Counted from the first letter of the stretch, positions 5,086-42,616 are shown. The stretch is DNA of 64,000 nt from Cirrosporium novae-zelandiae (GCA_026023565.1 JAPETS010000060.1:1-64000), one strand, 5' to 3'. The notes: a model not told the origin generated them from the letters alone. Made by a program: numbers and translations.

Positions 5086-5122
5086 CACAGAGTATACAGA
5101 GTACACAGAGTACACAGAGCAC
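5086..5122. repeat. Short tandem repeat (ACAGAGTAC-like, about 4 copies)
   Basis: cacagagtatacagagtacacagagtacacagagcac read directly. Confidence 0.8.
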
Positions 5123-8083: not shown

Positions 8084-8112
8084 GAATGAATGAATGAATG
8101 AATGAATGAATG
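8084..8112. repeat. (GAAT)n microsatellite
   Basis: About 7 perfect GAAT units. Confidence 0.9.
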
Positions 8113-13670: not shown

Positions 13671-13851
13671 TCTATTTGCTTTCTTTCGGATGTTCAGCAT
13701 CAGGACATGATTATTTGTATTTCCCCCTTCCACATGTAACTATCTAAGAGACATATTAGCGGATTCCAAAAGTGGGCGATGTTCACCGATTCAGAATTAG
13801 GGAGGTCTCAGCACCAAATAGAATTTTAACTTGTATCAATCTCGATTTTGA

Positions 13852-13905
13852 TATGTCCCCCCCTAACCCAAAAGAGATATACGGACAATAAAATGAATCA
13901 TCATC
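13852..13905 (+). mobile_element. Ultra-short retroposon-like element, copy 1 (most diverged)
   Basis: tatgtccccccctaacccaaaagagatatacggacaataaaatgaatcatcatc, flanked by 13-bp direct repeats atctcgattttga (13839-13851) and atctcgattctga (13906-13918). Confidence 0.75.
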
Positions 13906-15107
13906 ATCTCGATTCTGAATCCAATTTTACTTATACACTATAGATGAATAAACTAGAAGGTCCTCCAAGGGGAAATGAGTAACTATCCTATCCATTCCAA
14001 GGCTAAATTCCCACTTCTAGTCTCTATATCTGCTAAAAGCCATCCTGGTGATGAAGGAATTCCAAACAACTACAGCCACAGGACAAAGAGTAACAGAATA
14101 CAAGCCTACCCAGTAGTTTATCCAGTTCCAGTTCCATATACAGAACCCATACTCCAAGATCCCTTTCTATCCCTATTAAAACCCCAACATTTCCTTGACT
14201 CTATACCCCAAAAGCCTATCTATCTATCTATCCACATATCCCACCCCCCAGCCCTCAGCCCCAACTAACCAAAAATTCAATTCAACAAGGAAGAAAAATG
14301 CCATGACATACCAACAGAAAGAATGATTACAGTACAACTACTTAGGTCTTAAGTAACAAACAAACAATATTCAGAGTAGAATACTCACGCACCCACTAAC
14401 TATCCCCTTGTTAGCGACGTACTGTACATGTACATAACCCCCCCATCTCCCTTTGTCTCTCCCTCGCCATAGCCACCTGGTTATTTAAACCGACAGATCA
14501 GCGCATGTTCACCAAACAAACAAACAAACAAACAAAACAGAAATATATATTTCCATTTATCGGCCTCGACCCGTCGACTACACTAACCGATCGATCATGC
14601 GTGATATTTTTGTTTTTTGTTTTGTTTTTTCTTCGTTCTTAATTTTTGGTTGATTGAGGTGGTGGGTGGCTTGCTTTCAATTTTCAATGTACCAAGGTAG
14701 TCATGAAGAAGAAGGTCTCAGGCCTATCTTTGTGATGGAAACGGAAGGAGTATATATTGTATATTGTATATTGTTGTATGTAGAAGTTGAATACATATGT
14801 GTTCGGTTAGTTCAGTAGAAGGAAGGATATAAGGATATAAACAAAAGCAAGCAAGCGTCGTCCTAGAAAAGGGTACTTGACTTGCTTGACTTTATTTGAT
14901 TAGGACAAATGAAGAGGTATAGGTAGGTAGGTAGGTGTGGTGGGGGAACTCCCCTATTTATTTCTATTTCTACTTTTTTTTAAAGATAAATCTTTATCCT
15001 AGAAAGAAAGAAGTTGAAATTGAAGTGAAGAGAAGTAAAGGGAAGGGAAGGGTAAGAAACTACGAGGTTCTGCTAGGTTAGAGTGAGTGCGTAAGTGGAT
15101 TGGTTCC

Positions 15108-15236
15108 CCAATGCTGAGTTATTCGAAAAGGGTGATTGGACTGGACCGGGTGTTTACTGAGTAATTAACCTAGTATTGCATATTGCATGTTTTATATTGA
15201 GCAGCATGGTGCAGTGTAGTACGTAAAAACTCAACA
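15108..15236 (+). repeat. Dispersed direct repeat, copy A (expanded by micro-duplications); partner at 16900-16989
   Basis: Shares ttactga..taacctagtattgcatgttt(t)atattgagca..tggtgcagtg..cgta..actcaaca with 16900-16989. Confidence 0.85.
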
Positions 15237-16192
15237 TCCCAGATATATTTATATGCGGGGAAGTGAGCCCGATCTCTCTCGGATTGTACAGTACTGTTGA
15301 GGGTATAACCACCTCTAAAACTTTCCCGCTGAATTAACTCGCTGGGTGCTACTCTTTTACGATATCCATAGCTTACTTAGTGTGTTCGGATGCGATGCGT
15401 TGGGGTCAATGGATCATAGATCATCCCTTATGATAGGTATAGCTTTGCAAGGATGGCAGGAATCGAGAGAGAGTCAGAGAATGTCACCTTGTGTTGTTCT
15501 AGGGTGCAATATTTAAAATTGATAACGGGTAGTGGAGGTAGTTTTGATATGCCCTATTGAAATGCCACAATACTCAAAAGTAGATGGAAGGTTTCTGAAA
15601 AGGGAGTGAGTTGAGCAACTTTATTGATATCCAAGGGTCTCTTGGGGTGATATATATACTAGACGTAATGCAAAAGTTATGTTCAGTGTGTCTTCCTTAG
15701 TCCATATTGAAAAACTCTCTGATAGCCTAGATAGTAGATAGTAGAGAACAAATTTGCATTTCCCGAAGCCTAGAAGAAGATGATGTTTAGAAGCAACTAG
15801 CATCGTCTTAAGAGAATGGCCAACAGAAACATGACTGTGAGGCAATCTCAATTCTCTAAAATCTTTTTTTGAATTTCACCAGAATTCCTACCCTAGCCCT
15901 AGTAAGCTTGACCATACCATGTCAGAACAAACTATCCACAAGATTCAGAGGTAAAGCCTTAAGTCAAATTATCGATAGAGTACCGTACGTACTACCCCGA
16001 GGAGAGATATGAAAGCTATGAAGGTTCTTCACGGAATTAATTACGTACGTACTGAAGAAAGTTGTTGCATGCAACAGCTGGCTAGGTTCATTGAGGCTTC
16101 AAATATAGCCATTTAATTGCAGGTAAGCTCTTCGGAAGCCTTTCACCTTGCCACTACCCTCAAGAGGTTCCTATTGATATGTCCTATAAAAA

Positions 16193-16246
16193 GCATGTCC
16201 GCCATAACCCGAAGGCGATATGCGGGAAATAAAATGAATTATCATC
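16193..16246 (+). mobile_element. Ultra-short retroposon-like element, copy 2
   Basis: gcatgtccgccataacccgaaggcgatatgcgggaaataaaatgaattatcatc, flanked by degenerate 14-bp direct repeats atgtcctataaaaa (16179-16192) and atatcctatgaaga (16247-16260); the three mismatches are all A/G. Confidence 0.75.
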
Positions 16247-16597
16247 ATATCCTATGAAGAATTCAAGTTAGCATCATAACGACAGGTATCTAGATAGCTT
16301 AAAAATAAGGGGGAGAAAAACAGGTCCCTTCAGGCAACAACAGAACTCAGAAGCTGAGATGGATTTTTTTCATAGAATGTGGCTAACAGGATAGGAGGGG
16401 GGGGAAGATGGAAAGATCTAGATTTAGGGCTCTTGCGAACAGATAAAATATACGGCGTTCTTATTCATCGACTCTTTCAGAGCGGGGGCAAATTATATGA
16501 ACGTCGCTTGCACTTGAATGTCTGTTTTTAAATTAAATGTCGTTCTATACTATTGTGACCTCTTCCTGGGCTCCCATCACATCGATTAACAATTCAT

Positions 16598-16625
16598 AGA
16601 AGAAGAAGAAGAAGAAGAAGAAGAA
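16598..16625. repeat. (GAA)n microsatellite
   Basis: About 9 GAA units. Confidence 0.9.
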
Positions 16626-16899
16626 AAGAGCATAACTCCGCCACAATCAGAAAAAACGTCGGACAGAGAAAAAGGAAGGACGAAAACATTTGGAAGCACT
16701 TCATGGCACACATCTCATTCAATCCAAAAAAAAAATGATTAACTGTGGAAATGCAGGATCCTAATTACCAGTGTAGCGGTATGCTCCTCGTTATCGGCAG
16801 TTAAGACCGCGGCTAACTGTTCTCTGGCGCTACTTATAATATATATGTCTCGGCGTCTAGCAGCAAGCCAGGTTTTTTTTTATCTCAGAACCCATGTTG

Positions 16900-16989
16900 C
16901 AATTGTTAAGTTGTCAAAAGGTGGCTGGGTTACTGAATAACCTAGTATTGCATGTTTATATTGAGCATGGTGCAGTGCGTAACTCAACA
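16900..16989 (+). repeat. Dispersed direct repeat, copy B (compact); partner at 15108-15236
   Basis: caattgttaagttgtcaaaaggtggctgggttactgaataacctagtattgcatgtttatattgagcatggtgcagtgcgtaactcaaca aligns to copy A. Confidence 0.85.
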
Positions 16990-19239
16990 GCAATCAGATG
17001 GTGCCTCCGTTCATCAACAACGGTAGTTTATACCCATCCGATAAGCTTCTAGTGACCATGGTCTCTGCCGGTTCATTAAGAAGTTGGTTGTAGAAAAATG
17101 CACCAAGGCCTTCAGCACCGAAAATGGTCTCGGTCCTTATCAGCACTAACAATCTAGAGGGAATGTCTATCTGTCTTTCTCAATGAAGTGTGCTTCGCAC
17201 GTATCCACCTAGGACGACGGGTAAGCATCAATCAAAGCCCCTCCGGAGTCTTCTCCAAAATGCTATTATTACCAATTATAACTCCATCTGTCATCTGTGA
17301 ATATCCTATGTCCTCGGAGGGAAGCGAAAGCTAGCCCAGGACGGCTATTTTCTTTTTAGGCATCTGTTGCCCTAAAAAAAGGAGACTCATGACGTTTCTC
17401 TCCGTTCTCTCTCTCAGTCTTTACTCTTCTCCAGCTCATTGAGATAGTTGATTACCAATGAACAGAGATGAGGTAATATCACGTCTTTCGTACAACTTCT
17501 ACATGCCTTCCAAGTCATGCAGCTCCAATGGCTTCATCCCAGAGTGCTAATTATCTAGGTAGTTTGTCGAAAAAAGCTCATTCTCATCCGTCAACACCGC
17601 CAACGCCAACACCACTCTCTCTATCTCCTCCCACGATAGAAGACATATCTTCCAACCTCTCCTCTCCTTCAAGCCCCAGAGCCCCAGCATCAAAAATCTA
17701 ACACACCAAAACACATCTAATCATAACGAGGCTTCTGTAGAACTTTAATCTTAAGCTTATACTGGGAAATAAGGTAATGCCAAGACCAAGACCAAGGCAA
17801 TCAGAAGAGGACATTGATGGTTGGATTAGAGATCCTGGTAAAGTACTGTAGTTGGCATATAAATTCAAGGACAGTTGTGAACATGTTGGTTATTAGTAGG
17901 CTGGCTAGGCTAGGCTAGATCGGTCCAGCTCATCAGCATCAACCCACCCACCCATCCAGTTATAAAAGACTCATTCATAATTAAATAATCTTAAACATCC
18001 CGCTCTCTCTCTCTCACAAAAAGACTCCCAGACCATAAGAATAAAGCCTAAGCCAAGCAATAACATAGCATAGTATAGTATAGAAGCTTTACCAAGCTCG
18101 CACAGTAATAAAGAGAAAATCTTGATAGAAAATATACCCATTTAAGTTATCGCCGTTAGGTTATTAAGATCACTCTCACTTCCTTCCTTGTATACACACA
18201 CGCTACTTACTACCTACCTCAAGTCCTTCACTCGAATCCAGATTATATAAATCCAATAAAAGGTAGACTAAGGGTTATTTGTATGTCTCTATATACTACA
18301 ATACTACAGTAAAGAGGTTAATTATTTAATACTCTTTTACGCTTAATTAACGCGTTACAGTACAGTAGAAACAAGTTCCAAACTAAACCAACTAATTAAC
18401 CAACGTTAATTACCGTCGTTCGTCCCCTTACAGTACCAGGGTACTGTACCTTACTAGTAACCCATAACACTCTACTCGAGTATGATTAATTAATTCGTGA
18501 TTCCATTCCATTCCACCCCGTTAATATAAAAAGCTTAATTATCCCTCTACCAAAGTAACTTATTTATCCACATTGCTCCCCAAATAATAAGATTAAAGTT
18601 ATAAAAGATTAATTATTCTATTTGACATCACACCCAAATTACCATTGCGCGATAACTTATAGTTTAATCTCTAACATAAAAAAATTTAATATATGGAGTC
18701 TGTTTTATTTATTTTTATATCTTATATCTATCTGACATTTTTATGATAGCAACGGTCGATAAGATATTACGTACCCTATATATTGGAAAATTAATAAGTC
18801 AATCTACCTGAGATTACCTTTTAATCCATCTAATCTGCTTTCATTTACTTTCGAAAGTAGTTCATGGGTCTAATCTAATCCGATCGATTACTGAATCTGG
18901 AAGAGAGTAATTATCACTTCGGCTAGACTAGACTAAATGCTATGATTTTTTCCCAGAGTACTGCGAATATAGGGCTCGTATGCTAGGCCAGAAGCCTGGG
19001 TATTTCTTTAATACGGCGTCAGTATAAATATCTTGAACTGGAAAACGGAGTGATTTTCTTCTTTGGTTTGATTAGATGTGAAAACTGATGAAAATTGAAT
19101 ATGGGTATATATCGTTAAATAGAGTCAACCCAGCCCCAGCCCAGTCGAGATGATACAAGAGACGCCCAGACATTTAATCTACGAAATATCTTAGATCTCT
19201 GTCTGAGGAGTCAAAACCATACATTGCAAAAAAACCCCA

Positions 19240-20669
19240 TCATTGACGGATATTATCGCCACTATTGGAATTACTGTTGTCGCTACTCCTCTCCTCCGTC
19301 CAATGCAGCTCGCGACTAACCATAATCTCGTATGGATGTAATGGCATCTCATCACTCTCACCATCCCCGCGACTCTCCCTCTTCACCCTCACGTCGCTAG
19401 CCATCTTATTGTAATCGGGTCTCAAGTTGGTGTCGTCCTGCCGATGGTACCCATGCGTGGTGCTGGTAGGGTTGGTGCGGGACGTCTGGCCGAGCACAAT
19501 GTCCGTTCCTGCAGTTCGGGATTTGGCTTGGGAGCTGTCAAACCCCGAGGATATATGACGAAGGATGGGGCGAAGGGTGGGGAGGCACGCGCTAATGATT
19601 GCGGCTGATATTTCAATCAAGCACCATAAGAGGGGGGTGGCAACGGTCCCTGGAAGGGAGAAAGCTAATGTTAGCTGATGACTTCATGTTAAATGCAAGA
19701 TTTCGGCCTGTAGGTATCTCATACAAGGCGTATCTGAAATTTCAAAGCCGAAGAGGGTCGTAAAACGGTAGACACTAGCAAAAATGACGCTACGGTAGAA
19801 ACACTCCTCGTTAGTAGTAGACCTAGAATGATACGACATCTGTAAAGGGATTTCCTCACAAGCTGCCCAGCAGGAAAATTCCAATAACAGAAAGTCGTTG
19901 AATAATGCTCGTCTGAAGCCTCCATAAATGAGGTATGGGTAATGCCAAAATGATGAAATCGGTTGTAAAATTAGGCACTGCGTTCCCAACATATAGTCCT
20001 CTGAGGTAAAGGCAGTGACCAGGAAGTGAATAATCCCAGGCTCGGCGAAGGGGTGTGCATTGGAATACGACAGCTGTGTTGATAGCAATAAACCAAGCTC
20101 CCACTATAAATCCAATAATCCAGGCCCCTAGCCGCAGGCTTCTTATAGGAAAGATACGGTAGTACATGATCAGGATGGACAATTTGACAACCGCTATGGA
20201 CGTGACGTATGTAAGTTCGAATGCGTAAAGAAGCTTGCGACCTTCATAAGTATCTGATACAAGTGTACAATTTTATAGGGAGGAACTTACCTTGAAAATC
20301 ATGGTATTCGCATAATCACTCAGATCATCTTTGTGCCGACCCATACCATAGTGAATCACTATTATCATAGGTCAGAATAATCCCCCTAAGCTTCTCTGAC
20401 GAATGCAAGGGCACCATACTAGTTATATATATGCCCATTGTGGCATAAAGAATTACCTATCTTATTCAGTTTCTGTAAAATATCGAACTCGCCATTTTTG
20501 TTCTTACTAGGGCCAACAAAAGTGTATAGTCATCTGAACCATACGCCACCCTCTTCATTGATCGGGCGACGATTCGCAATATCACAAACACCCCAGCGAG
20601 AACCGAGACGGCTATTCCGGACCGCAATAACTGTCCTTGATGGTTCGCATGTTGGTCGGCGGTACCCAT
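19240..20669 (-). CDS. PTH11-like (fungal rhodopsin-like domain) integral membrane protein without CFEM, multi-exon
   Basis: VILRIVAR..GSDDY, HYGMGRH, VKLSILIMYYRIF, FQCTPLRRAWD..GHC, NFTTDFIILALPIPHLWRLQ, IFLLGS, FASVYRF, WCLIEISAAIISACLPTLRP. Confidence 0.92.
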
Positions 20670-22275
20670 CGAAGAGAATAGAAATCACGGATCATATGAG
20701 TGAATAGGATATTCTCAAAACAGAAGAATACCAACGGTTAATGGACAAAGAAATCAATGAGAGTGAAGAACAAGCAAGAAAACTTTAATGTATATGTCGC
20801 AACCAAACTTTTAAAGACAAGACGTTCAAGAGTGAAAATGGGATGTCATAGCCTCGGTCGCAAAGGCGCACGAAGGGCCTCGCAGAGATCTCACAAACGT
20901 CTTCCTTGCAAACACCCTGGACGAATTTGAAATCCTCGCTCGAAGTTAAAGCTTCCGAGTAGGTTTCATTATTGAACGGATGCCAAACTGAGTTTGTAAG
21001 TCAAGGTCCAGGTATCTTTAAGCCACTCAATCCATTATCAGGAAGAGAGGTGAACGAAAGAAAGGTGCCAGTGTGAAAAGGGCCAGTGGAGCATCATAGG
21101 GATCTGCATAGGCGTAATGCACTAGCCTTGAATCGACACTGCACCATCTTCACCTCGTCGTCGCCACCATCATGCTTGCAAGCCTGTCATCGACTCACCG
21201 TTGGGACCCAAACGCAGGTTAGGCTAGGTACCGGGATTGGAGGGGAAGCGGGCCAAGGAACCCGGGGAGCAGAGGAACGGAAGGAGCCAAACAACTTCAT
21301 TGATGAAGAATACAGATAGGAATTAGATAGATAGTATCCACTGGATACTAGAGTAAAATGAAATTTGGCAAGATCAATCCTTCCTCTCTGTGGGAATCAG
21401 GACTGTGGTGGAGTACGATAAGATAAAAGAGAGTTTCTGTCAAAAAGTCGGACGGGTGAAGCCTATTTTGTGAGTTCTCCGAGATGCTAAAAGCTGGAAA
21501 GGGATGGTAAGTTGGTGAGTGTACTCGAGTAATGATTGAAAGATGCTCGAATTCGTGTAGGAAACTTTATGCTCCATAATCTGGCGTGTCTGGGTATGAC
21601 GGGACATGACGGGACTGGACGGGGAAATCAACTACCGTTCGGACTAATTAGGAAGCAAAACTCTCTTGAGGTTGGATGAAACGACTTCCGACCTAATTTG
21701 GACTAGTTATATCTAAGCCTTTCCTAATCTCGAAGCCTTTCCAAATTCGTCCAAAGTTGAAATGACAATATCTTGATAATTTGATAAGACGTCTTCAAGG
21801 ACAACCCTTGGATATCCAAGATCCCTTGATGACTGACAGATAATTGCTATAACTCTATAGTATTGAGGTAGCTACTTATGGCTAACTTAAGCCTTATATA
21901 CATACGATGTTATCCATGATGAGGAAAATACCCTTTAAACAACATGCTTTACCATTTAACGCAGGATTGGTCGAATGGGTCGTTACACGTACTACACCAG
22001 ACGCTTCAAGTAAGTAGTTACTTTGCTAACTAAACCTACCTTAGGAATTGCTTGATCACCCATCTCTTTTGTTTCCATTCCTTGTCCGTCTTTTTGCTCG
22101 TAGACCTGGCTAGATCCTTCCTCTCCATGGCCATTTTCTCCTACCGTCTCATCCACGAATACATCTCTCTTCCCTCTACCCTCTTTGAGCAATACATTAT
22201 CCCACTTCAAACTCCCTTCCATAAAACCCCCTTGGATAAATTAATCTGGAGTAGATCACCAAGAATTCCTACAAC

Positions 22276-23141
22276 ATGTCTACCAAGCCCGTCATTCTTT
22301 TTGTCCCAGGGGCCTGGTCCTCGCCCGAAGGTTATGTCTATCTCTGTGATATCTTGACCAAACGTGGCTACCCCACTGAAGCTGTGGCCCATCCTTCTAT
22401 CGGTGCTGAACCTCCTAACAAGAACCTCTACGACGATGTCGCCAGTCTCAAGGCAACCTTGACTAAGCTTGCAGATGAGGGAAAGGAGATTGTTGTTGTT
22501 GCTCATTCGTATGGAGGGATGGTGAGCTCTGGGGCTGTTGAAGGCGTAGAGCTCGTGCAGCGAGCCAAGGAAGGAAAGCACGGCGGTGTGATCATGTTAA
22601 TCTACATGACGGCATTTGTCATTCCGAAAGGCAACAGCTTGCTGGATATGATTGATGGAAAATACCTATGGTGGATGTGGCGAAAAGTAAGTACCGTCTT
22701 CTGTCCTAATCTCTTCGCAGCATCATTTAGCTATTGTTTTTCTCGGTAGCCCTTCAAGAAATATTAACAATCCCTTCCTCTGAGCAGGACAACTACTGTT
22801 ATAGCAGCCACGAGGATAAAGCCCTTTTTCACGATCTTACCCCCTTGGAACAGGAACGCTGGACCAAAGATCTGCAGCATATCTCCGCGGCCGTTTTCGA
22901 AGTCCCTGCTACCTACGAACCCTGGCACACCCTCCCTACCTCTTTCATCATTTGTGAAGAGGACCAGGCCATTCTACTCCCCGTTCAGGAAGCGATGGTT
23001 CAAGCCTTAGGCCCCCAAACCCCCGTCCGCAAGCTAAAGTGCTCGCATTCCCCCATGTTTGTAAGACCAGAAGAGACTGTGGATGTACTTGTAGATTTGG
23101 TTGATATTGCTGTGGAGAAAAAGGGAATTTTGGAAGCATAA
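22276..23141 (+). CDS. Alpha/beta hydrolase (Abhydrolase_6, methylesterase-like), 2 exons
   Basis: ILFVPGAW, nucleophile elbow AHSYGG, ICEEDQAI, CSHSPMF; intron gtaagt at 22687 to ag near 22786. Confidence 0.9.
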
Positions 23142-30018: not shown

Positions 30019-30225
30019 CGGAGTGTGATGTAATTCAAATACTGATAACCTGGTAGAAAGTAGCAAGGAATGTAAATAATTAATGAAAGTTCATGTGTAG
30101 CGGGGTTCAGCCCTATCTCTCTTGAGAGGGGGGATGAAGGCTTGGCATTTTTGCAGTTGGACGCTGAACTCAGCTGGGTGAAATTGTTTAAAAAGCTAGC
30201 ATTTTTGAAATGGAACCTTTTATCT

Positions 30226-31068: not shown

Positions 31069-32394
31069 CAAGATCCTACTACCCTTAAAATAAATTGATG
31101 AAGTCAGAGGTCATATATGAGAGGAGGTTTCATGATACCTCTCTTCCGAGTTATTTCGGGGGTAGTTCGTCATCCTCTCTTATCTCTTCGGATCTGAGAT
31201 TGTCTTTGATTACTCCCGTTCACTGGTTACTAGCCAGCCTTCTGCATCGCTATCTGCATAGGAGGACTAGAAGATCGGAGAGATGCGAAGTGTATACACA
31301 GTGTCCATAGCTCCCTGGATGCTTTTTTTTATTCACGAGGTTAAATAAAGATGGGAAGGGGGTTTTGACCAGTCGATTATACAAAATTCGCAAGACCCAA
31401 TAGACCTGGAACGAGGGCAATATGGAAAGTATATCTTTGAAGTTAGATCAAGATGATATAGGAGGTTTAGCTTCTCTCCTGGGTTACGAAAGTATAGACT
31501 AGTTAATTACTAAAGGAGGAGTTCATGAAAGTCGCCATTTTAACTAAAGGGGGGGGGGTCCGGTCTAGTTATCGTGGGACACCGATGGGTCAGTGCCTGC
31601 ATTAGTGACCGGTGTAAAGACCTTCAAATTCGAAATTCTCTTCCTCCTTTTTTCGGCCAATTGCAAATCCAGTATCCAGAAGTCACCAGTAAAGATGGAT
31701 TTTGACGGGCTGTTTGACAGTTATGGATTATTAAGTGACTATTCATGACCATTTATGTACTATGTACCTTTGAAGAAGAGAGTTCATCTAAGGAACGAAA
31801 GAGTTTGCCATCGGTCGCATAAAGTTACTAAGGAATATATTACTTGTCATGCTTACTTAGTAGGGAAGATTGAAGAAGAAGAAGTTCCAGAAGATAATAG
31901 GTAATAATGTAAATTTGGTATTCCCAGCCCCTTCTTTTTTATTGATTGTAAGTTATGGACTGGTGTGAATTGTGTGGATGGTGGATTGTGGACTGTAGAC
32001 TGTGGGTTTTGGGCACCCATCCCCCGTGACTGGACCCCCCAAGGACCCCCCTCCCCCCCTCCCCCCCTCCTCTACTTTGTGTCTACCGCTCGTCTATCGC
32101 CTCACAATACACGTTTGTGATTCCCTGAAAGAGGAGAAGCCTAGAATATCTCTAAAAAAACATTTCCCGTCTTTTCCTCTTTCCTTCATAATATATCTAC
32201 ATCCTTCTTCCATCTATTGATACATCAACCTCAAGATATATATAATACCATGATAGTGATTCCGTGTATTGTTACATGCTATCCCAGATCAATCTGCTCT
32301 CGCTACAAGTTACCTACTGGCTCCTGACCATCAATCTAACCATTTATTTCTCATACCCCCCAGCCAAAGTACCAGTGGACCTGTAAGAACCCCC

Positions 32395-32455
32395 CTCCCT
32401 CCTTCCATCCCCCCCAAACTACCCCCCCCCCCCAACCCCCCCCCCCCCCCCCCCC
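32395..32455 (-). other. Dense poly-C tracts (G-quadruplex-capable on the minus strand); similar tract at 32035-32072
   Basis: Multiple long C runs separated by short linkers just upstream of the 32535 gene. Confidence 0.5.
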
Positions 32456-32534
32456 GAACCCATAACCCCGACAGGGAAGTTGGCTGAAGTTGAAGCTAAA
32501 CAAAGTACCAAGGACCTTTTCTCAACTTGCGAAA

Positions 32535-34610
32535 ATGTCGCGTACAACAACAGCCACCCCCAACTCATGGCCTACCATGTATCTACCTTCACAACAAAAA
32601 CAACAAAAAGACTGGCGATTGCTAAGAAGCAAAACCGAATCTTCACTTGTCGCACCACGTCGCTCGATAACTAGTCGATCGCGACAAAAATCATTCGATG
32701 CCTCGACATCATCATCAACAAAACGACCTCAAGAGTTCGGTGCAGAGATTACTCGCTTAGCGCCCGCCCCCGACGTGGAATCGAATAATAATAAGGAGGA
32801 AGACTACTTCCTCCTCCAACTCCCCCAAACCACCCCGCTATCACCACCATCAAAAAGAATTCGCACCACGTCGAGATCCCGCAGAAGTTCCATATCACTT
32901 TCGCCAAAACAAAATCCCTTTCTTCATTCTAGGTCTCAATCAAAAAGTCAACTTTCACCGCCGGTGGCCGATACTAGGTCAGCCCCGACCAGACGACCGC
33001 CTGCTTCGCATAGTAGTCATGGGATAGAAACCTCACACGGCCCTCCTCCTGCACTCATAACACAAAGATCCAAACATACCTCCGAGATGGACGATTACCA
33101 CGATGAGACTGATAATTCCGTCGTCTCCACTGGGACACACTCAGTCTGGGATGAGCTGGAAGACATCAAATCAAGGATACGCCGATTAGAACTGACGGGG
33201 CGATTACCGGCAGCATCCGTTGAGAAACCACGCGCGTTGAGCGCTTCACCAGCCCACTCTTCAAATGAGAGTGCGACCGACACAGAAGACAAGGACCAAG
33301 AGGATATAACCTTACGGCCGTCACCACCACCGACCGGACCCTCGTCGCTGTTGAATTCTGCATTAGAAAAGACCAAGCCCCATCTCGCGAAAGATGTCTA
33401 TCGAGCCTTGGAAGCCACGGTTTCAGATGTTATCGCCCTGGCAGCGATGATGGGAAGTACTGGCGAGGTTCCTTCTTCAGGCGCATCTCAAGCATCATCG
33501 GCTGTTGGGAATACACCAAGTGTCTCGGCTCGTCAAGTTCGCAGAAAAACCGATAGCATCTGTCGAAACATGACCGAACTATGTGTTGCCATGACCGATA
33601 CTCCCGCTTCTGCGCCTCACACATCTCCGAGAAGCCGTCCAAGCCGCCCAAGCAGTAGGGATGCTTCATCGACTCAACCCGCCGCCAGTCATAACACCGA
33701 ACAGTTTTCGTCCCGCTTTGGTCGAGGCCTCAGCCTTGAACCAGAAGATCTCCCTCGCGCGGGCTCTCGAGTCATGTCGCGACTCGAAGCGCGTCGATCG
33801 TCGATGATGGTATTTGGCGCGTCGACAAATGCTCGGGGGACAACAACTACTTCTGAAGCCAACACAAGCTTGCAACCTCATAACCCTACATCGAATTCAT
33901 CCAGCAGTCGCGCGAATCGTACCTCAGCCATTTTCCGTCCTCGGACTACCGCCGCTCCTCGAGAAGAATCCCCTGAGGTCGAACCCCCAAAACATTCAAG
34001 TATTCGACCAGTGTCACGAGCAATGACCGAGGTTACCCATGTACGCTCGCCCCGTGAACGAATGTCTCGAGAATACACATCGCACCATCCACTACCAGAG
34101 CCTCCAACCGCTTCGTCGCAAAACTCACCCTCATCCGCTATTACACCTTCATCTGCTATTATACCTAGTTCTCGGCTTGGTAGACGAAGCAATTACACCA
34201 GCGCAAGCAGCGTTGTTGGTATCCAAACACCTCCTTCACAACCTACGAATCATTCGGAATCGCATTCGCATACTCAATCGAATCCCACATCTGCTATTTC
34301 AAGCAAGAAGGCTTCATCCACCCGTCCACTTCGCGTATCATATGACTCCACTGGTTTAACCCAACTAGCCACCCCACCTTCCTCCGGGTTAGGCCTCGGT
34401 AATGCAACATCACGTCGATTCAAAGCCTTGAACCATACTCCACGGAGCCCATCGCATTTGACAGATAGCAGTAACAGTGAAAGCCCATCGGAAAAAGCCC
34501 CTTCTGCTATCTCCACCTCCTCGAGAACCGGTCTGAGATTTGTCTCTTCCGCTTTACCTTCAGGTCATACCTCTAGACGGATTCCACGACCGAGCCTTCC
34601 TGCTAGCTAG
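32535..34610 (+). CDS. Conserved fungal Ser/Pro/Arg-rich low-complexity protein of unknown function
   Basis: Long ORF (first ATG 32535) with ordered islands SVWDELEDIKSRIRRLELTGRLP, LLNSALEKTK..VYRALEATVSDVIALA and RQVRRKTDSICRNMTELCVAM. Confidence 0.82.
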   Translation: MSRTTTATPNSWPTMYLPSQQKQQKDWRLLRSKTESSLVAPRRSITSRSRQKSFDASTSSSTKRPQEFGAEITRLAPAPDVESNNNKEEDYFLLQLPQTTPLSPPSKRIRTTSRSRRSSISLSPKQNPFLHSRSQSKSQLSPPVADTRSAPTRRPPASHSSHGIETSHGPPPALITQRSKHTSEMDDYHDETDNSVVSTGTHSVWDELEDIKSRIRRLELTGRLPAASVEKPRALSASPAHSSNESATDTEDKDQEDITLRPSPPPTGPSSLLNSALEKTKPHLAKDVYRALEATVSDVIALAAMMGSTGEVPSSGASQASSAVGNTPSVSARQVRRKTDSICRNMTELCVAMTDTPASAPHTSPRSRPSRPSSRDASSTQPAASHNTEQFSSRFGRGLSLEPEDLPRAGSRVMSRLEARRSSMMVFGASTNARGTTTTSEANTSLQPHNPTSNSSSSRANRTSAIFRPRTTAAPREESPEVEPPKHSSIRPVSRAMTEVTHVRSPRERMSREYTSHHPLPEPPTASSQNSPSSAITPSSAIIPSSRLGRRSNYTSASSVVGIQTPPSQPTNHSESHSHTQSNPTSAISSKKASSTRPLRVSYDSTGLTQLATPPSSGLGLGNATSRRFKALNHTPRSPSHLTDSSNSESPSEKAPSAISTSSRTGLRFVSSALPSGHTSRRIPRPSLPAS

Positions 34611-35505
34611 CGAGGATTGGTGCCATCTATCATTATCTTTTGACTTAAAGACCATGATTTAGGAAGAACCTCAAAATTATGATTTTGCATATATTTGTGC
34701 GGATATATTCTCATACATATTATTATTATTATTGTTTAAGCTGGTCTGCTACTTTCTGTTCTGTATCAAGCGTCGGCGCTTTAGGGTTATATTTAAGCCA
34801 AGCTTTATTGTTTATTTTATTTTGGTGGGACCATCTATATTGGTGGATATTTTTGTTGAATTTGGAGATGTTGGATAAGCATGCCCTCCTTTTCATCCTC
34901 TACATGCAATCTGGAACCATTGGGAATATCAAGCGGAAAATTCATACCTGGCGCAATGACTGGGAGTCAAGAAAACGAATGACAGTAGTTTTCTGGTTGG
35001 TTGGAAGGGTCAATGATGGGCATGAGACATCCAATGGAATTGTCTTTGGTACTTGAAGAGGATCGACTTGTACGATATTTATTTAGAAGAAATATTCGAA
35101 ACGTGGATGCAATGAAAGGCATATCTAATCTACAAGTATGCACATGATGATGACTATGTAAAGTGCAGGCATTAGGGTCAATAAGCAGCAAGGACTTTAT
35201 TCACCCTAGCACCCTAGTAACCACTTGGATGAGCGAGGTATCTAAATGATAGATGATAGGTCAGATAATAGATTGTAATTATACCCATCTGATTATCTTC
35301 ATGTTTCGATTCGAGCAACCCCCCCCCCCCAGTCCAGCTTCTGATGATGATGCAACAATCTCCAAAACCAATTTACTCATTGCTTGAATTCTTTTCTGCT
35401 CTGATGTTGCCAACTAATTTCCATTTGGGCACTCTCGCAGGCCCAACTTACAAAACCCCACCACTATACCACCACCAATAACGCATCTCGTCATTCCCGA
35501 CAACA

Positions 35506-37496
35506 ATGCTTTCACCTCACTCAAGTTCTGATCCTCGCTCCTCATCCACCCAATCTCTCGTCTCCTCACCCCTTGAGACTGTTCCAAATAGACGCACTCT
35601 CCTTTTAATTTACATTCATGGTTTTCTGGGAAATGAAACAAGCTTCAAAAGCTTCCCGGCGCATGTGCATAATGTCTTGGCCATGACGCTGGGGGATAGA
35701 TATACTGTACATACCAAGATCTATCCAAGATACAAGAGTAGGAAACCCATTGAGATTGCAAGTAGTGATTTTAGTAAATGGTGAGTCGTTTGTTTGCTTC
35801 CTACCCGTAATAGGCACCAATATACCAGTAGGAACTTTACATCAAGATAAACCTCATTTCAACCAAAAATTTAGTTATCGGTGGTTAGAAGCAAATTGTT
35901 ATTGCCAACACTATTGCTAACTCCTTTCTCCCCAGGTTGGCCCCTCATGAATCCCCCGCCACCGACATCATCCTGCTGGGCCACAGTATGGGCGGCCTTC
36001 TCTCCGCCGAAGTTGCCCTCCTTCGCTCTCCTCCTCCCTACAACAATTCCAATCCCTTCCGCCATCGCATTATCGGAACCATAAATTTTGATACGCCGTT
36101 CTGTGGGCTTCATCCAGGAATCATCGTCAGCGGACTCAGTAGTCTCTTTCGGGGAAAAGAAACGGGAAAGAATAATGGAAAAGAGGGGACGAGGGAGAAT
36201 AGAAACAGCAGTGAATATGGGGGGAGCTCCGAAAGTTTGCAAATCAATGAACTGGTGGGAGTCTCGCCATCTCCACCATCTTACTCTTCACTATCTGCTA
36301 CACCCCCACCACTTCCACCTCGTCGACCAGCTTCCCAACCACCCGCCTCATTCCCCCCTCCACCTCCTACACCGATACATCTTCTCCATCCAGATCCAAC
36401 ATACAATCCTGCCTTTAACAATGATGTTTACCTTCCTAGACCCCGTGGTTTTATTCCTGGGGCTCTCCATTTTCTTCGCAAACACCGCGATACTCATGAT
36501 GTGCGTTCTGCAACAAAGAGCTATGTCATTGATCATTTACAATTCGGAGGATGTCTAGCAGACTGGAGGGGGCTAAAAGACCGATGGAAGGCAATTAGAA
36601 CTTTGGAGGAGGAAGAGACGATGCGGAGGGGTGGTTGGCCAAGACGGAGGTTTATCAATTATTATACTACTTGTAACGGGAGACGGAAACGGCCGAAGAA
36701 AGAGAATAATGAAGCGAGAGATGCAGGGAGAGATGCAGGAAAAGATACTATGAATGAGGAGCAGAGTAATCAAGAGGAAAAGAGATATGACGAGATAGTT
36801 GAGGGAGATGTCAATGGAGAAAAACGGCCGATGAACAATAACATCCCTGCTGCTGGAGAGTCTACTATTCAGATATCTATTGACGAAGATGATACAACCC
36901 TAGCTCCAACATCTTCCGTTCTATCTTTACAGTCTGACTCTATCTCCATGTCATCAAACCCCGAATTTGACACCCTTAGTTCGGTCACAACACTCAATGA
37001 AACCCTTCCCGACATTGAAACAAACACCATGACCAACGTATCAAAGTCTTCCACTAACATATCTGAACCCCTCACCACAACCGCCTCGTCCGCTTCAGTA
37101 ACCACCACCAATTATGCCGATTCCGAAGCCACCTCTCATAGCACATGTACATCAGCACCTTCGACCATAGAAACCGAATCCTCGATTTCGTCTACCACCA
37201 AAGCAAAAGCCAAGAAGCCCCCCAAGAAGCGAAAATTCTGTCTCCTGCCGCCCACCAATCCTCACGATCCAACCTGGTTCAACATCGACATGGGCAACGT
37301 GAGCGAGGTTGGCGCGCACTGCGGGCTGTTCATCTACTCAACAGCTCAGGACCCCAAGCAGGAGGTTGAGCTCGAGAGGGACGAGGATGGGGTTGTGGAT
37401 GAGGAGGGGATAAGGATGCGGTATGAGAGGCTGGTGAGTGAGGTCGTGGAGAGAGTGGAGGGATGGGTGGCTGGATATGATCCGAGGATGGGGTAG
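35506..37496 (+). CDS. DUF676/putative lipase-like alpha/beta hydrolase, 2 exons
   Basis: LLLIYIHGFLGNETSF..FP, YPRYKSR, intron near 35781-35936, IILLGHSMGG, GTINFDTPFCGLHP, HLQFGGCLAD, RKFCLLP, VSEVGAHCGLF. Confidence 0.88.
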
Positions 37497-37879
37497 AGTT
37501 CAGCATGTATGCATGAGATTCGCTGTCCTAGTTTCCCATGCCGCTCTCAAGCTACTAGATAACTAGACGGCATGCGATAACTATCTATCCCCTCTCACAC
37601 GACTTACCTCCATCTATACTCCCCATCTCCCACCCCCTCCCACTCCCCTCCTCTTTCTTCCAAGACTCTTCCACCAAATTCAAGCCTAGAACGACCAATG
37701 AATGAATAAATAAATAAATAAATAAATAGGATAAACAGATTAACCAATCGATCCAAACCCACCATCTCGACCAAGGAAATATTAATTCCTCCTTTCTCTT
37801 CTTCTTCCCTTTTATCATTTTCTTTTCTTTTCTTTTCCCTCCCTTTCTCTTCTCTATTTTATCCCAGGCGTTTAAACAC

Positions 37880-38106
37880 CTCAGACTCAGACTCAGACTC
37901 AGGCTCGAGCGTGAGCGGGAGACGGGGGGACTAGGACACTTGACCTATCTATCTATCCATCCATCCAACGAAACAATTCGGATACATGGACATGGACATG
38001 GACATGGAAATGAGATAGAAGATATAACCAGTTGATTGAGCCATATATCTTGTATCTTATATCTTATAACAAACAAACCAACAAACAAACAAACAAACAA
38101 ACAAAC
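37880..38106. repeat. Cluster of microsatellites: (CTCAGA)n, (CTAT/CCAT)n, (GGACAT)n, (CAAA)n
   Basis: Read directly at about 37880-37901, 37945-37966, 37980-38007 and 38068-38106. Confidence 0.85.
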
Positions 38107-38636
38107 ATACATATCCTCATCTTCTCAGCCCCCCACCAACCAACCAACCATCTAACGGCTTAGGGGGGGGGAGATAATTAGTCAAACTCAGATAATAAAA
38201 TCACCAATTAAAACAATTTTTTTTTAAATTACCTTCAAGCGGCATTATTGCTTGAGTATAGGAACTTGTGAGAGGGGGCGCTTCTCTAGACAAATATTTA
38301 GTCTATAAATATGGGAACCCCCATCTCATCATCTAGTAGTAGATGATTTTCTTACTGGACTTGTTTTTTTTCATTACATGCTTGTTCATGTAGATAGATT
38401 TCCTTGGAAAATGAAAAATAGGGAATTCCTGACCACTCTTTTGCTCACTATTAATCAATTACCCTTTTCCTAGGATGCTAACGCTTTTCCTTCTACTGAG
38501 CTTACGGATCAGTTCCACTACACCCACCACTAAGACAAATTATGTCATTAATATTTTTTGCATTGAAGTCTATAAAAGTCCCTGAGAACACTACTTTACT
38601 TTAAAACGCTTAACCCCTCTTTAACCCATCCCATTA

Positions 38637-40561
38637 TCACTTATCGTCGCAAATCGAATCTATTTCCCCTATCGATTGAAACTGCATAGCACTATTTCCC
38701 CTACCAAATACAATCGCGTTTCCGTCTTCCGAGCTGTAGGGCTTCCAGTCCTGTTTGGGGAGACCTTCGATGGGGTCTTTTATAAATTCGAGCCATAGAT
38801 CTGTGTGATGGTTGGTTGGATGAGGATAAAGGGGAAGGTAGATAGATAAAAAACGAACCTTGCATGGTATGACTTGTACAATATTCGAAAGGAGTGGAAT
38901 CCACATCGGCATCAGAATGCGAGCCGAAGAGAAGGGGAAGTTCCGCTAGATGAAAGCATATTAATAAGCTTTTCTGGGCAATGCCGAAGGATGGGGTAGG
39001 TTGAGACACTCACAGGAATGATAGGCACCCATCCATGGGAGCGGCGAAATGTTGGTAAAGTTGCCATCGTAGACGTATCGGAATGTTGGCCTTCCTGCAG
39101 CTTCCCGAAGTCTATTTAAGGTTAGTAGTGATTGGACTTCAATGGATCATTCCGACGGACCTTGATGACTTTACTGCTGGACAGAGAAACATGTCTCGAG
39201 CCTTCGTAGTAGATGTGTCTTGGTTAGGGCCATCCGGGGAATATGGAGCAAGCGCAGAGCCTTCATTCGACGTTGTCCCAATGATGGCAGGAAGGGAAGT
39301 AAACTTCTCATCCTTATACTGTTTCGTATAATCTGAGAAAACAAGGGCCTCATCTGGTATTGGGATGAAAGATAACTTGGGGCTGGATCCACCAAGATGA
39401 AGCTTTTCGTTCTTTTGCAGGAACGACTCTATCTGTTCCTGGGGAATCTTTCGCATGCAACCGAGTTCAGCTTCCGCATCTTTGCTGGCGCATCCAAGGT
39501 TCTCGGCTACGAAAGAGAAGTTTGCTTGGACATGATCTTCGGACTTGAGGGGCAACAGTGCCGAGCCGGAATCCATGATAAAGCCACTGACGATGGGATC
39601 TTGAGGGAAAGCAAAGTTCTGAATATCGACCGAGGAGGCACCGGCAGATTGACCCCAGAGGACTATCCGAGCAGGATCTCCTCCAAATTTGGCAATATTG
39701 TCACGTACCCATTCAAGACTAAAGATTGTTAGCGGTTCGTGAGAAGAAATGTTTCGCTTAAAAGTGAGCTAGGAGTATTTTTAACTATGCAGGCAGGATG
39801 ATCATATACTCCTTCAGGAGTATTCTCATATGACAGATTCCCTTGATAAGATGTGCCGCTCAAATGAAACGAGTGGGGTATATGAATTTGACTAACCCTA
39901 AGCGTTGATCCAAGAAGCCAAGGTTCTGATCCTTGAGTCCTCGAGCATTGGGAAAACCAAAGATATTCAAACGATAACTAGCGAATCAATTCATTGGCAT
40001 TGACTTTCATATTGTGGATGGGATAACGTACTTTATTTGAACGACAATATGGTTCTGTGACCGCTGGACCCATTTCGAAGGTATTTGATATGTGGTATTT
40101 CCACCACCGTTGGTAAAAGCACCACCATAGATCCACACTAAGACGGGAAGACCAGAACTTCCACGTTGTTGATGCTTTCTCACTGGAGTCCAAATACTCA
40201 GGAATAGACAATCCTCCGAAGTTTCACCAGAAACAATTAACTCTTGAACATCTCTAGAATACACAGATGGAATAGAACTCTGAAACTGAGGGCATGATGG
40301 AGAAAAGGATGTTGCGTTGATAGGTTCGGCTGGTCTCTTTGGCTTTGGTGGTTGCCAGCGTAAGTCTTCTATTGGAGGCTCTGCAAATGGAATGCCTAGA
40401 AATTGTCGGACCCCAGGAGTGCTGTATTCAATAAAGCCCTTCACCTCTCCGCTTGTAGTGTGTATATCCAGTAAGTAATCATAAGTAATAGTTATATACA
40501 AATAAGAACCAATAGCTACAAAGACAGCAAGATAATAATAAAAAATCCTAGGAACAATCAT
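38637..40561 (-). CDS. Carboxylesterase type B (COesterase family), multi-exon
   Basis: FLGIPFAEPP..LRW, SEDCLFL, PVLVWIYGGAF, YRLNIFGFP, NLGFLDQR, NIAKFGGDP, LWGQSAG (catalytic Ser), GTTSNEG, GAYHS|ELPLLFG; hydrophobic N-terminus. Confidence 0.95.
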
Positions 40562-41614
40562 TGTGAAGAAAAAAAGCCAACAAGACTAGGATTGAATAAC
40601 AAGGGGGGGGGAGGTTCGATGGGGCTTCTAGAAGATGAAGGGAGGGTAGGGAAGATATATATAGCAAGACTTTAATAATCGGTGTGGAGAAGAAGAGCGT
40701 AATAGTTAGAAATAGTCAAGAGCGGAGCAAATATTTCCCAAGGTAGATGATTACGATTGGGAAAGGGGGTTAAATAAAAGTAGGCACCACCAAGGAGGTA
40801 GGTCAGTTTGCTTCATCTGTGAGCTGTTTTCGGGGAACGGTGAAGCATCTTTCTGCATGTCTGTGGAGTAAGGTGTTACGTATCTATTTAATCGAGGTGA
40901 TGGCAACACAGTATATTGTTAAAAAGGCTTGCTTCTCTCTGTTGGAAGATTAATTTTTGAGATAATAATCCACTTGGAATTGATGGTTTCTGATTCAATT
41001 TTCCACCAAGGTCGGTTCGGGGGGGGGGGGGGTTGAGTTGACGTTGCATCAAATCAAATGGGAGGTTAGCATGTGAAAGTGGAAAGTGGAAAGTGGAAAG
41101 TGGTGAGTGGTGAGTGGTACATTGCGGATTAAACTGCTCCCTCGTCAGACATTCCCACCTTTCCTTTTCCATCTTGGACAACATCACCTCCTTCTCATTA
41201 ACCCCTTGTCCTTTTTACTTACTCTCCCATCAATACCAATAACATGAGCAATAAGATCTTACCGATTACTCAGATAACCTTTGGTGCCATTTCCAGACAC
41301 AGAGATCTGCACTCGACCATAACCCCCGAGAGCAATCACCTACTAATTAGCTCTTAAGTCTTCCGGTCTTGGTGCTTCTCATTTAGCAAACAACGACCAT
41401 GTTCCTGGATTCGGTTCGGAGAAAGGTTTTCCATCAGCAGGCTTGAATTGAACTTGAACCTTATGTTGACAAGGATGCAGCCCTATAACCTTCTGCTAGG
41501 TCCGATCGGAACTCGTTCATATTCGCACTTTATCACAAGCAAGCTCTGGAATAAGAAAATCACTTCTTGTATCAAGTCAAATGTGCTAAAAGTCGAGCAG
41601 AAAATAGCAAACTT

Positions 41615-41666
41615 ATGTCTGCCATAACCTAAGGGCGACATGCGGATAATAAAATGAATCATCATC
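41615..41666 (+). mobile_element. Ultra-short retroposon-like element, copy 3
   Basis: atgtctgccataacctaagggcgacatgcggataataaaatgaatcatcatc, flanked by 12-bp direct repeats aatagcaaactt (41603-41614) and aataacaaactt (41667-41678). Confidence 0.78.
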
Positions 41667-42616
41667 AATAACAAACTTTCCGAACCCTTTCCTTCAGTTC
41701 AGCCACGTCTCGCTGTTTATACAACCTCAATGATTTTGCAAACCAAAGGTGGATTAAGAACCATGAACGGGGTAGGAGATCTTTATACTCGCCGATAATT
41801 CATGAATCACGGACATGTACCTACTCCTACGGCGTTTGCGCAGCTATGACCAAAAGATTGCTGAAACCACCCTGAAAACCCTAAGGTCTGATGGATATGC
41901 TTGACGAATTGACGATGGGGAAGGACGACAGCAAATTGAGCATATAGCCAGGACAAGAGACCATTGTATCTGAATCTAAGATTAGGGCGCAATATTATCT
42001 GCCGTTAACCGTTGTGGTACAAGCCTGCATAATTCCATTGTATTGTTCTAGTACACTGTTGCTAGACTTCCATGATTGATAAGTGTGCTGATGGTATCGA
42101 AGTATCGTGCAGAGTAGGAGTTATTAAAGGATCCCCTACACAAGATAGTGATTTTCATACAAAAATTCCCAATAAAAGCTAACGATCGAACTAATGACTC
42201 CCCATTTGAGAGCCAGGCAACTATCAATTACAATGTGAAGTTTAGGAGCTGTTAAACAATATCTAATACCAGTGTTAATGGCTATCATCGAGATGGCACC
42301 TTCCGCGCTGGTACCTACTGTTACTGCTCATCTCCGACTTTGAGATAAGAATTGGAATACTTCCTCTATATGACGATTCATTGATACTTTTGTTATCAGC
42401 ATCCCCACGATGATCAATCTCCAACCGAGATGCTTATCTAACATACAGGGATACTAGTAAGATGGGGTAAGATGGTATTCACCGCGCAACCACAGCTCTT
42501 TGTTCTTCAGGTTATATTTACCTGGGAGGACCGGACCAAGGAAGCCCAGGTGTATTGCAGACAGCAGTTGTTTTCTGTGATATGTGAAGAACTGTGACTC
42601 TATCCAATCCCTCGAC

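Follow-up and report, generated by a model that had tools for sequence, protein, structure and literature searches.

A dispersed 54-base hairpin unit as a candidate minimal retroposon in the ascomycete Cirrosporium novae-zelandiae

The 3′ end of bird and reptile CR1 carries a hairpin and an 8-nt microsatellite that serve as the RT entry site, and the rodent ID element, derived from the BC1 master gene, is a very short retroposon of about 75 nt plus tail. Stringent-type LINEs are reported to require a 3′ stem-loop and terminal repeat units, and stringent-type tails are described as common to LINE/SINE pairs in the CR1, Tad1 and RTE clades (PMC4176376). In the accounts of eel UnaL2/UnaSINE1 and zebrafish ZfL2-1/ZfL2-2, a stem-loop lies tens of nucleotides from the 3′ end and is followed by tandem repeats, which is the layout found here; the UnaL2/ZfL2 tails are described as being recognised by the cognate ORF2 protein and shared with partner SINEs. 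In fungi, Magnaporthe insertions are reported to carry 12–14 bp direct repeats, and RT is described as dissociating from MGL RNA at preferred sites that have a consensus and predicted hairpins nearby (PMC2104539). Among primate SINEs, Platy-1, at about 100 bp, has been called the shortest (PMC4864456).

The window analysed here, a 64-kb stretch of C. novae-zelandiae DNA taken at its full length, contains three copies of a unit 52–54 bp long, each lying between its own target-site duplications (TSDs):

13839–13851, + strand: left TSD of copy 1, ATCTCGATTTTGA, matching the right one at 12/13 positions (random frequency 3e-5)
13852–13905, + strand: copy 1 of the 54-bp unit, 75% identity to copy 2, profile E 1.5e-13
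13906–13918, + strand: right TSD of copy 1, ATCTCGATTCTGA, whose first three bases, ATC, prolong the (ATC)n tail
16179–16192, + strand: left TSD of copy 2, ATGTCCTATAAAAA, 11/14 match, may reach 16194
16193–16246, + strand: copy 2 of the 54-bp unit, best preserved, reference for the other copies
16247–16260, + strand: right TSD of copy 2, ATATCCTATGAAGA, whose first two bases, AT, prolong the tail repeat
41603–41614, + strand: left TSD of copy 3, AATAGCAAACTT, 11/12 match (random frequency 9.5e-5)
41615–41666, + strand: copy 3 of the 54-bp unit, 85% identity to copy 2
41667–41678, + strand: right TSD of copy 3, AATAACAAACTT, whose first base, A, prolongs the tail repeat

The initial annotation had placed three copies at these coordinates with 5′ ends within 2 nt of each other; the same places were recovered, all on the + strand, and the agreement of the 5′ ends was confirmed. 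A repeat search of the window, in which the identities to copy 2 were measured over 53 nt, showed that the three-copy unit is its sole real repeat family, the other 11 direct ‘families’ amounting to simple repeats or to short pairs of low identity. The 19-mer AATAAAATGAATYATCATC occurred exactly three times in the window versus 0.10 expected, and at up to three mismatches it gave four matches, a number that 0/100 shuffles reached. An nhmmer profile made from the three copies (--max) matched only these three (E 2e-16 to 2e-13), and the next-best match in the window had an E of 1.5. A candidate fourth copy at about 8498–8567, resembling ATAACCGAAACCGAC...ATGAAACATCATC, was rejected, as its spacing was about 18 nt too long, its profile E was 16 and no clear duplication was present. 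Copy 1 sits 182 bp downstream of a + strand ORF.

Copy 2 consists of a stem-loop, a linker, AATAAA at 16228–16233 and the tail ATTATCATC. Its stem has 10 bp with one bulged C (16193–16203 paired with 16214–16223) and encloses a 10-nt loop. The differences between copies 2 and 3 break no stem pair: one G-U pair becomes G-C in copy 3, and the others are confined to bulge, loop, linker and tail, with AATAAA and (ATC)3 intact. Copy 1 is the most decayed, with a broken stem and one additional C, and its 3′ half, AATAAAATGAATCATCATC, is intact; all three window copies end in (ATC)3. Predicted fold energies of −13.9 (copy 2) and −9.7 kcal/mol (copy 3) agree with the stem-loop described earlier for these two copies, and that of −4.5 kcal/mol with its decay in copy 1; the fold z-scores of the three copies are weak (−1.87, −1.19 and −0.92). 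Over only three sequences, 83% of the stem cells were paired versus 17–50% in slid controls, and the both-sided change at one stem pair was matched in 339/500 shuffles.

The duplications differ in sequence at each window copy and measure 13 bp at copy 1 (consensus ATCTCGATT[T/C]TGA), 14 bp, or up to 16, at copy 2 and 12 bp at copy 3 (consensus AATA[G/A]CAAACTT). Their significance was taken as the frequency of equal-or-better repeats at 200,000 random pseudo-elements in the window; with 1.6e-3 per site for the scored 12-mer of copy 2 and the values listed above for copies 1 and 3, the earlier claim that each copy has its own 12–14 bp direct repeats was upheld. So was the observation that every mismatch between left and right duplications is a transition (5/5), and reading the copy 2 duplication as 16 nt adds two more mismatched positions, which are also transitions. 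RIP was considered as the cause of these transitions and rejected, the indices at the copies being unremarkable and the mismatch contexts not CpA. The left and right duplications are 8–21% diverged, and the right ones overlap the tail by 3, 2 and 1 nt of the ATC repeat in copies 1, 2 and 3, respectively. The variable duplication length favours staggered nicks and disfavours a transposase or integrase.

Genome-wide copies were collected by aligning the contigs of one public run (35.7 Mb, 157,048 contigs) to window positions 16150–16299, with a likeness threshold of ≥80% on copy 2. The result showed that at least 31 of the 157,048 contigs matched, comprising the source locus and 30 others, of which 10 were 90–95% alike to copy 2, 20 were under 90% and none was at 95–99%. 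Contig depth was 349–363 in 8/8 listed pieces (of 31), equal to that of the source contig, indicating that these are single-copy loci of one genome. The prediction of many copies genome-wide was thereby borne out with 31 single-copy loci at this likeness. Two further runs of the same study, from other organisms, contributed no contigs to the alignment, a result that speaks neither for nor against the family.

The 30 other loci align to copy 2 across 16195–16248, and their edges are sharp. Between bins 16190–94 and 16195–99 the coverage rises from about 1 to about 25 contigs and the summed depth from 424 to 8894. Among the loose ends listed, 15/15 upstream ones fall within 16195–16198 (11 at 16195, 2 at 16196 and 2 at 16198; for 9 more rows the side is unstated), and soft-clipping at mismatches may displace apparent ends by a few bases. 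The family-wide 5′ end on copy 2 is 16195, while copy 2 itself was placed at 16193–16246. A smooth range of 5′ ends, named beforehand as the pattern that would speak against a discrete element, was not seen, the listed ends lying within 4 nt. Beyond the 5′ loose ends of the 11 copies with their edge at 16195, letter agreement was 0.42, compared with a simulated 0.417 (0.388–0.448) for 11 unrelated sequences and 0.472 when three have shared sequence, so that at most about 2 of the 11 could run into a common longer element. The sequences beyond the listed 5′ loose ends are unrelated. At the other edge, 14 of the listed 3′ loose ends fall at 16248 (11) or 16247 (3). Past these, the consensus of the loose letters starts with CATCAT, indicating that other copies have longer (ATC)n tails, which slippage priming predicts. 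Given the sharp 5′ end, the unrelated upstream sequence and the placing of most 3′ ends at 16247/16248, this is a discrete unit of about 52–54 bp and no smooth series of 5′-truncated tails. The copies look old, because none is 95–99% alike to copy 2 and because of the divergence of the duplications.

The unit starts directly with the stem and has no tRNA, 5S or 7SL head with an internal pol III promoter; lacking a pol III head, it fails the SINE definition. As in non-LTR retroposons, the TSDs of the three window copies vary in length and sequence, the 3′ end is fixed, the simple-repeat tail is variable and target overlap occurs at the 3′ junction. MITEs and cut-and-paste elements do not fit, as the ends (ATGTCC... 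and ...ATCATC) form no terminal inverted repeat, the sole inverted repeat of the unit is its internal stem and the duplications measure 12–16 bp. Helitrons make no TSD, have a 3′ hairpin before a CTRR end and insert between A and T; here duplications flank 3/3 window copies and neither end is CTRR.

The initial annotation had noted no pol III A or B box, and the box consensus sequences indeed matched the unit no better than random 54-mers, the best A-box match having 2–3 mismatches and the best B-box match 4–5. Rfam at gathering score gave 0 matches across the window, including no tRNA, 5S or SRP, and around copy 2 gave 10 sub-threshold matches only (E ≥0.32, bit scores far below gathering), among them C/D snoRNAs (GATGA repeat, − strand) and RAGATH-25. 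No Pfam RT, endonuclease or other TE domain was found in 56 (8 + 48) of the 77 window ORFs of ≥110 aa, 21 having been left out as overlapping frames, and six-frame read-through of the ORF-poor interval 13906–19200 showed no RT or endonuclease domain. An Ldh_2 ORF is among the window ORFs. A metagenome scan with ATRCGGNNAATAAAATGAATYATCATC returned 0 loci; the 53 loci returned with the 19-mer tail were discarded as chance, since the profile match never extended 5′ of model position 27 (0/53).

The junction features point to target-primed reverse transcription (TPRT), probably by a stringent-type LINE, because the duplications vary in length, the microsatellite tail is variable and tail and target overlap by 1–3 nt; the TPRT reading of the initial annotation fits all of these features. 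We give an even chance to the explanation that the copies are insertions of a discrete, non-autonomous, non-coding retroposon of about 52–54 nt that has no promoter of its own and was copied from a short RNA. The data show a discrete unit with its copy number and unrelated flanks, its duplications, a variable tail and an overlap between tail and target; beyond this, we infer an RNA intermediate, its strand, a LINE partner, a role for the stem-loop and an origin of the 5′ end. The unit would comprise only what a stringent-type LINE RT requires at an RNA 3′ end, namely a 10-bp bulged stem closed by a 10-nt loop, a roughly 20-nt linker containing AAUAAA and a short (AUC)n tail. In the proposed cycle, a LINE endonuclease would nick the bottom strand after T in AT-rich DNA, and the freed 3′ end would pair over 1–3 nt with the (AUC)n tail. 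RT bound to the stem-loop would then copy the RNA up to its 5′ end at the stem base, and a top-strand cut 12–16 bp off would produce the variable TSD. The template would be a short RNA with a true 5′ end at the stem base, which may be the product of a master locus driven by an external promoter or be a protected 3′ fragment left from a LINE or read-through transcript; a promoter-less 54-nt unit can persist only if a master locus or read-through transcription supplies its RNA. A bolder reading, which we hold to be less likely than not, is that this self-contained 52–54-nt family is nothing more than the bare LINE-RT recognition module, templated by a discrete cellular RNA. That RNA could be a promoter-driven master transcript or a nuclease-resistant 3′ fragment, the latter of which could be protected by the stem-loop or by bound LINE protein.

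The same TPRT signatures are expected if the copies are dead-on-arrival LINE tails, made from full-length LINE RNA when RT or second-strand joining aborts just 5′ of the stem-loop. In that case each 54-bp unit would be an extremely 5′-truncated copy ending at a hot spot, the units would form no family of their own, and the missing promoter would pose no problem; the loss of RT from MGL RNA at preferred sites near predicted hairpins, as described in Magnaporthe, offers a precedent (PMC2104539). However, if the hairpin blocked RT, the stop would be expected on the 3′ side of the stem, at about 16223, whereas the observed end lies past the whole stem. Ordinary truncation further predicts a spread of lengths and longer copies with common upstream sequence, but 15/15 listed ends fall within 4 nt, upstream agreement is at the random level and no LINE was seen in the window. 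We regard this truncation reading as possible but rather unlikely.

Retro-copying of a cellular small ncRNA, transcribed from one master gene with an upstream promoter and accepted by a LINE RT at its 3′ end, would have parallels in the ID elements copied from BC1 RNA and in U6 retropseudogenes. It would accord with a discrete 5′ end starting with A, unrelated flanks, duplications and the lack of an internal promoter. Yet no Rfam family matches at gathering score, AAUAAA with a microsatellite tail is a typical LINE 3′ ending but an atypical one for known small RNAs, and no master locus was identified; we regard this origin as improbable. The hairpin and AATAAA, together with the position of copy 1 downstream of an ORF (182 bp, + strand), would also be compatible with an immobile regulatory or terminator motif, or with an element that moves as DNA (a MITE, another cut-and-paste type or a Helitron-like hairpin end). 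An origin of this kind is very improbable: the ends form no terminal inverted repeat, the duplications are 12–16 bp and sequence-diverse, while Helitrons leave none and those of transposases are fixed in length, and the unrelated flanks of the 11 copies ending at 16195, like the duplications, oppose a motif conserved in place.

A 54-base unit in which a hairpin is followed by AATAAA and a short TCA repeat, apparently inserted by a LINE-type RT and present in at least 31 scattered copies, would be among the shortest retroposon families described. Should its template be a discrete 54-nt RNA, the unit marks the lower size limit of LINE-dependent retroposition and would define, from a natural example, the features that the RT of a stringent fungal LINE needs (stem, loop, spacing to the repeat tail and repeat unit). 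If it is the bare recognition module, the minimal unit of LINE-dependent mobility would exist in nature as a family, and the genome would display directly what the RT of a fungal LINE minimally has to recognise. If the 5′ end instead reflects a fixed stop on LINE RNA, the copies are a clean example of site-specific reverse-transcription termination. The at least 31 natural variants could be used for covariation analysis, and the size of the module suits direct binding, structural and retrotransposition assays. Most repeat finders apply length cut-offs that repeats of about 54 bp do not reach, and similar families may therefore be missed generally.

In open-access text, the 13-mer ATGAATCATCATC gave no related match in full text, fungal-SINE phrases gave no match, no description of a promoter-less, tail-only family was found among the entries listed and, among shortest-SINE claims, only Platy-1 was relevant. 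The 52–54-bp unit is roughly half the reported length of Platy-1. Unlike this unit, CR1 copies are truncated over a broad range, and ID elements have a tRNA-derived pol III promoter and an A-tail and depend on relaxed-type L1. The tail module used in UnaL2/ZfL2 assays is reportedly close in size to the unit. In contrast to those pairs as described, however, the tail module here is the whole element, with no LINE body or SINE head, its repeat unit is TCA/ATC and its host is an ascomycete, not a fish. SINEs proper are likewise described as non-autonomous, short and dispersed, with variable TSDs and a LINE-type tail (PMC5786205), but they have a head, which the unit lacks. The Magnaporthe MGL LINE/Mg-SINE/MINE/WEIRD elements, compared with the unit by their published description, are a fungal LINE system too, one with a non-autonomous element that imitates the LINE 3′ end; the MGL 3′ fragments described there span 230–5461 nt with 28 different junction sites (PMC2104539), whereas the unit described here has one end point and a product of 54 nt.

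A repeat search of the 64-kb window returned three copies of one short unit as its sole convincing repeat family, and their positions (13852-13905, 16193-16246 and 41615-41666, all on the + strand) were exactly those given in the initial annotation, where the unit had been proposed as a candidate ultra-short retroposon. A profile built from the three copies and run on the window gave three matches (E 2e-16 to 2e-13), the next match having an E of 1.5. With copy 2 (16193-16246) as the reference, the unit is composed as follows.

16193-16203 paired with 16214-16223, + strand: stem, 10 bp with one bulged base
Copy 2, + strand: loop, 10 nt, ATAACCCGAA
Copy 2, + strand: linker, GGGAA
Copy 2, + strand: AATAAA, after the linker GGGAA
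Copy 2, + strand: ATGA, between AATAAA and the tail
Copy 2, + strand: tail, ATC/ATT-ATC-ATC

The stem-loop claimed previously was recovered by folding in copy 2 (-13.9 kcal/mol) and copy 3 (-9.7 kcal/mol), the stem being lost in copy 1. Ten aligned columns distinguish copy 2 from copy 3, with no pair broken and one G-U changed to G-C; this retention of pairing is only suggestive, as three sequences are available in all. The fold z-scores of the three copies ranged from -1.9 to -0.9, and the covariation score of the stem, computed on three sequences only, was matched by 339 of 500 shuffles. The 3′ half of the unit is nearly invariant (one change in 57 nt across the three copies) and the CpG-bearing 5′ half is decayed, chiefly through transitions. 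A loose likeness to the unit was also seen at 8498-8567 (ATAACCGAAACCGAC followed by ATAATATGAAACATCATC, with about 18 nt more between them than in the unit). It is not supported as a fourth copy (profile E 16, without a clear duplication), and is a chance match or else a very old copy.

Genome-wide copies were collected from X1, a public sequencing run with 35.7 Mb of contigs, in which 99% of the words from 13000-17000 occur. This DNA probably derives from X1, which is hence not independent of it. Alignment of the X1 contigs to 16150-16299 at a likeness of at least 80% showed that 31 of 157,048 contigs matched, comprising the source locus, 10 contigs 90-95% alike and 20 less than 90% alike. 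Word depth was 349-363 in the eight listed pieces of the 31 and 361 in the source contig; these eight pieces represent loci present once in the genome from which the source contig comes. Summed depth was 361 in the flanks, rose from 424 (16190-94) to 8894 (16195-99) at the 5′ edge, peaked at 11,400 (about 31 contigs) and fell from 5670 (16245-49) to 493 (16250-54) at the 3′ edge. The upstream loose ends, among those listed, lay at 16195 (n = 11), 16196 (n = 2) and 16198 (n = 2), and the downstream ones at 16248 (n = 11), 16247 (n = 3) and 16234 (n = 2), these counts being of listed rows, beyond which there are nine more. A smooth range of 5′ ends, which the initial annotation had regarded as the mark of ordinary truncated LINE tails, was thus absent among the listed upstream ends, all of which fall within 16195-16198. 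The 30-letter upstream consensus of 11 loose parts had an agreement of 0.42, compared with a simulated 0.417 (0.388-0.448) for 11 unrelated stretches, 0.472 when three share a sequence and 0.528 when four do, indicating that no common longer element extends beyond the 5′ ends of the copies. The downstream consensus begins with CATCAT (agreement 0.48), which means that the (ATC)n tail is longer in other copies. Taken together, the sharp depth edges, the loose ends and the random-level flanks demonstrate that the unit is discrete and about 52-54 bp long, and that it starts sharply at the stem base.

The copy number is at least 31, and the length of the microsatellite tail is variable. Since copy 1 is 75% identical to copy 2 and falls under the 80% threshold, the true copy number is probably higher. 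No matched X1 contig has a likeness of 95-99% to copy 2, and divergence within the duplications is 8-21%; on this basis the family looks old. De Bruijn contigs would break at element ends if the 31-nt words there were common to several copies. Two X1 contigs (records 4 and 7) stop 1-2 nt past an element end, which hints that some copies are far closer to one another than to copy 2. Within its 64 kb the window has three copies, each on the + strand, and the genome has 31 in 35.7 Mb (at least 80% likeness), or about 0.06 expected per 64 kb; this excess may reflect a regional insertion preference, or may be due to post-hoc selection of the window plus undercounting of decayed copies.

Each window copy is directly adjoined at both ends by a direct repeat whose sequence differs from copy to copy. 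These repeats are 13 nt at copy 1 (12/13 identical), 14 nt at copy 2 (11/14) and 12 nt at copy 3 (11/12), and when 200,000 pseudo-elements of 52-56 bp were placed at random in the window, equally good repeats occurred at frequencies of 3e-5, 1.6e-3 and 9.5e-5, respectively. The flanking repeats of the three copies are real, and their mismatches are all transitions, as had been claimed. The right-hand repeat starts with ATC in copy 1, AT in copy 2 and A in copy 3, and therefore overlaps the ATC tail repeat at the junction by 3, 2 and 1 nt, as expected if the nicked target end anneals to the repeat tail and primes the cDNA.

The unit has no terminal inverted repeats (TIRs), LTR or coding capacity. 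Together with these absences, the discrete unit, unrelated flanks, variable duplications, variable tail and target overlap are characteristic of an APE-type LINE acting by target-primed reverse transcription, and any non-retro explanation is highly improbable. AATAAA, the location of the variable repeat at the same end and the target overlap lead us to infer that + is the sense strand. The layout of the unit, a stem-loop plus terminal repeat units, is the one described as recognized by stringent-type LINE proteins and as common to these LINEs and their partner SINEs; the Tad1 clade, which is reported to be common in fungi, is among those in which this occurs (PMC4176376).

How the constant 5′ end arises can be read in several ways. 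A fixed stop on a long LINE RNA would accord with the preferred RT exit sites documented for a fungal LINE (PMC2104539). However, a stalling hairpin should halt RT at the 3′ side of the stem, yet the product ends past the whole stem, at its 5′ base, so a stall fits more poorly than a template beginning there and is rather unlikely. The template RNA itself would then start at the 5′ base of the stem, and could be either a short master transcript or a 3′ fragment that its structure or a bound protein protects; we give about an even chance to the template being such a discrete short RNA. That the copies derive from a master gene for a small RNA with no relation to a LINE is quite improbable.

The window is gene-dense eukaryotic DNA (G+C 40-52%) with ordinary fungal genes, identified by Pfam domains as sugar transporter, Ldh_2, amino-acid permease, fungal rhodopsin domain, methyltransferase, Tpt1, carboxylesterase, Zn2Cys6 factor and DUF3074/START. 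The DUF3074 ORF is 100% identical to a protein that NCBI assigns to a metagenome-assembled genome of Cirrosporium novae-zelandiae, and after this match its nearest relatives are only 44% identical. The species is described as an isolated Pezizomycotina lineage (PMC6712537), and a close relative for comparison is therefore lacking. Copies 1 and 2 lie within 13700-19200, 5.5 kb of lower G+C (0.34-0.44) without any ORF of at least 110 aa, in which six-frame read-through gave no Pfam domain; a RIP-like dinucleotide signature marks bin 18001-19000 (G+C 0.339, TpA/ApT 1.26, (CpA+TpG)/(ApC+GpT) 0.73). This stretch may be what remains of a heavily mutated repeat, or a plain gene desert. A 405-aa + strand ORF without a Pfam family (12453-13670) has its stop 182 bp upstream of copy 1, which has the same orientation, bears AATAAA and could lie within or supply the 3′ end of that gene. 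At 350 bp beyond the 3′ end of copy 2 there is a (GAA)n microsatellite, about 35 bp in length (16596-16630).

No LINE was found in the window: Pfam detected neither an RT nor an EN domain in the 56 ORFs scanned, out of 77 with at least 110 aa, or when the ORF-poor segment at 13.9-19.2 kb, which contains copies 1 and 2, was read through. Metagenome scans showed no relatives of the unit, and an Rfam search of the window showed no family for it. In lexical searches of the open-access literature, no account turned up of a family this small that lacks a promoter and consists of a tail alone. Assignment to MITEs or Helitrons was rejected, as there are no TIRs and the duplications are variable, as was assignment to SINEs, as the unit has neither a head nor pol III boxes. 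The unit behaves as a stringent LINE or SINE 3′ tail does, and is about half the length of Platy-1, which at about 100 bp is named as the shortest primate SINE (PMC4864456).
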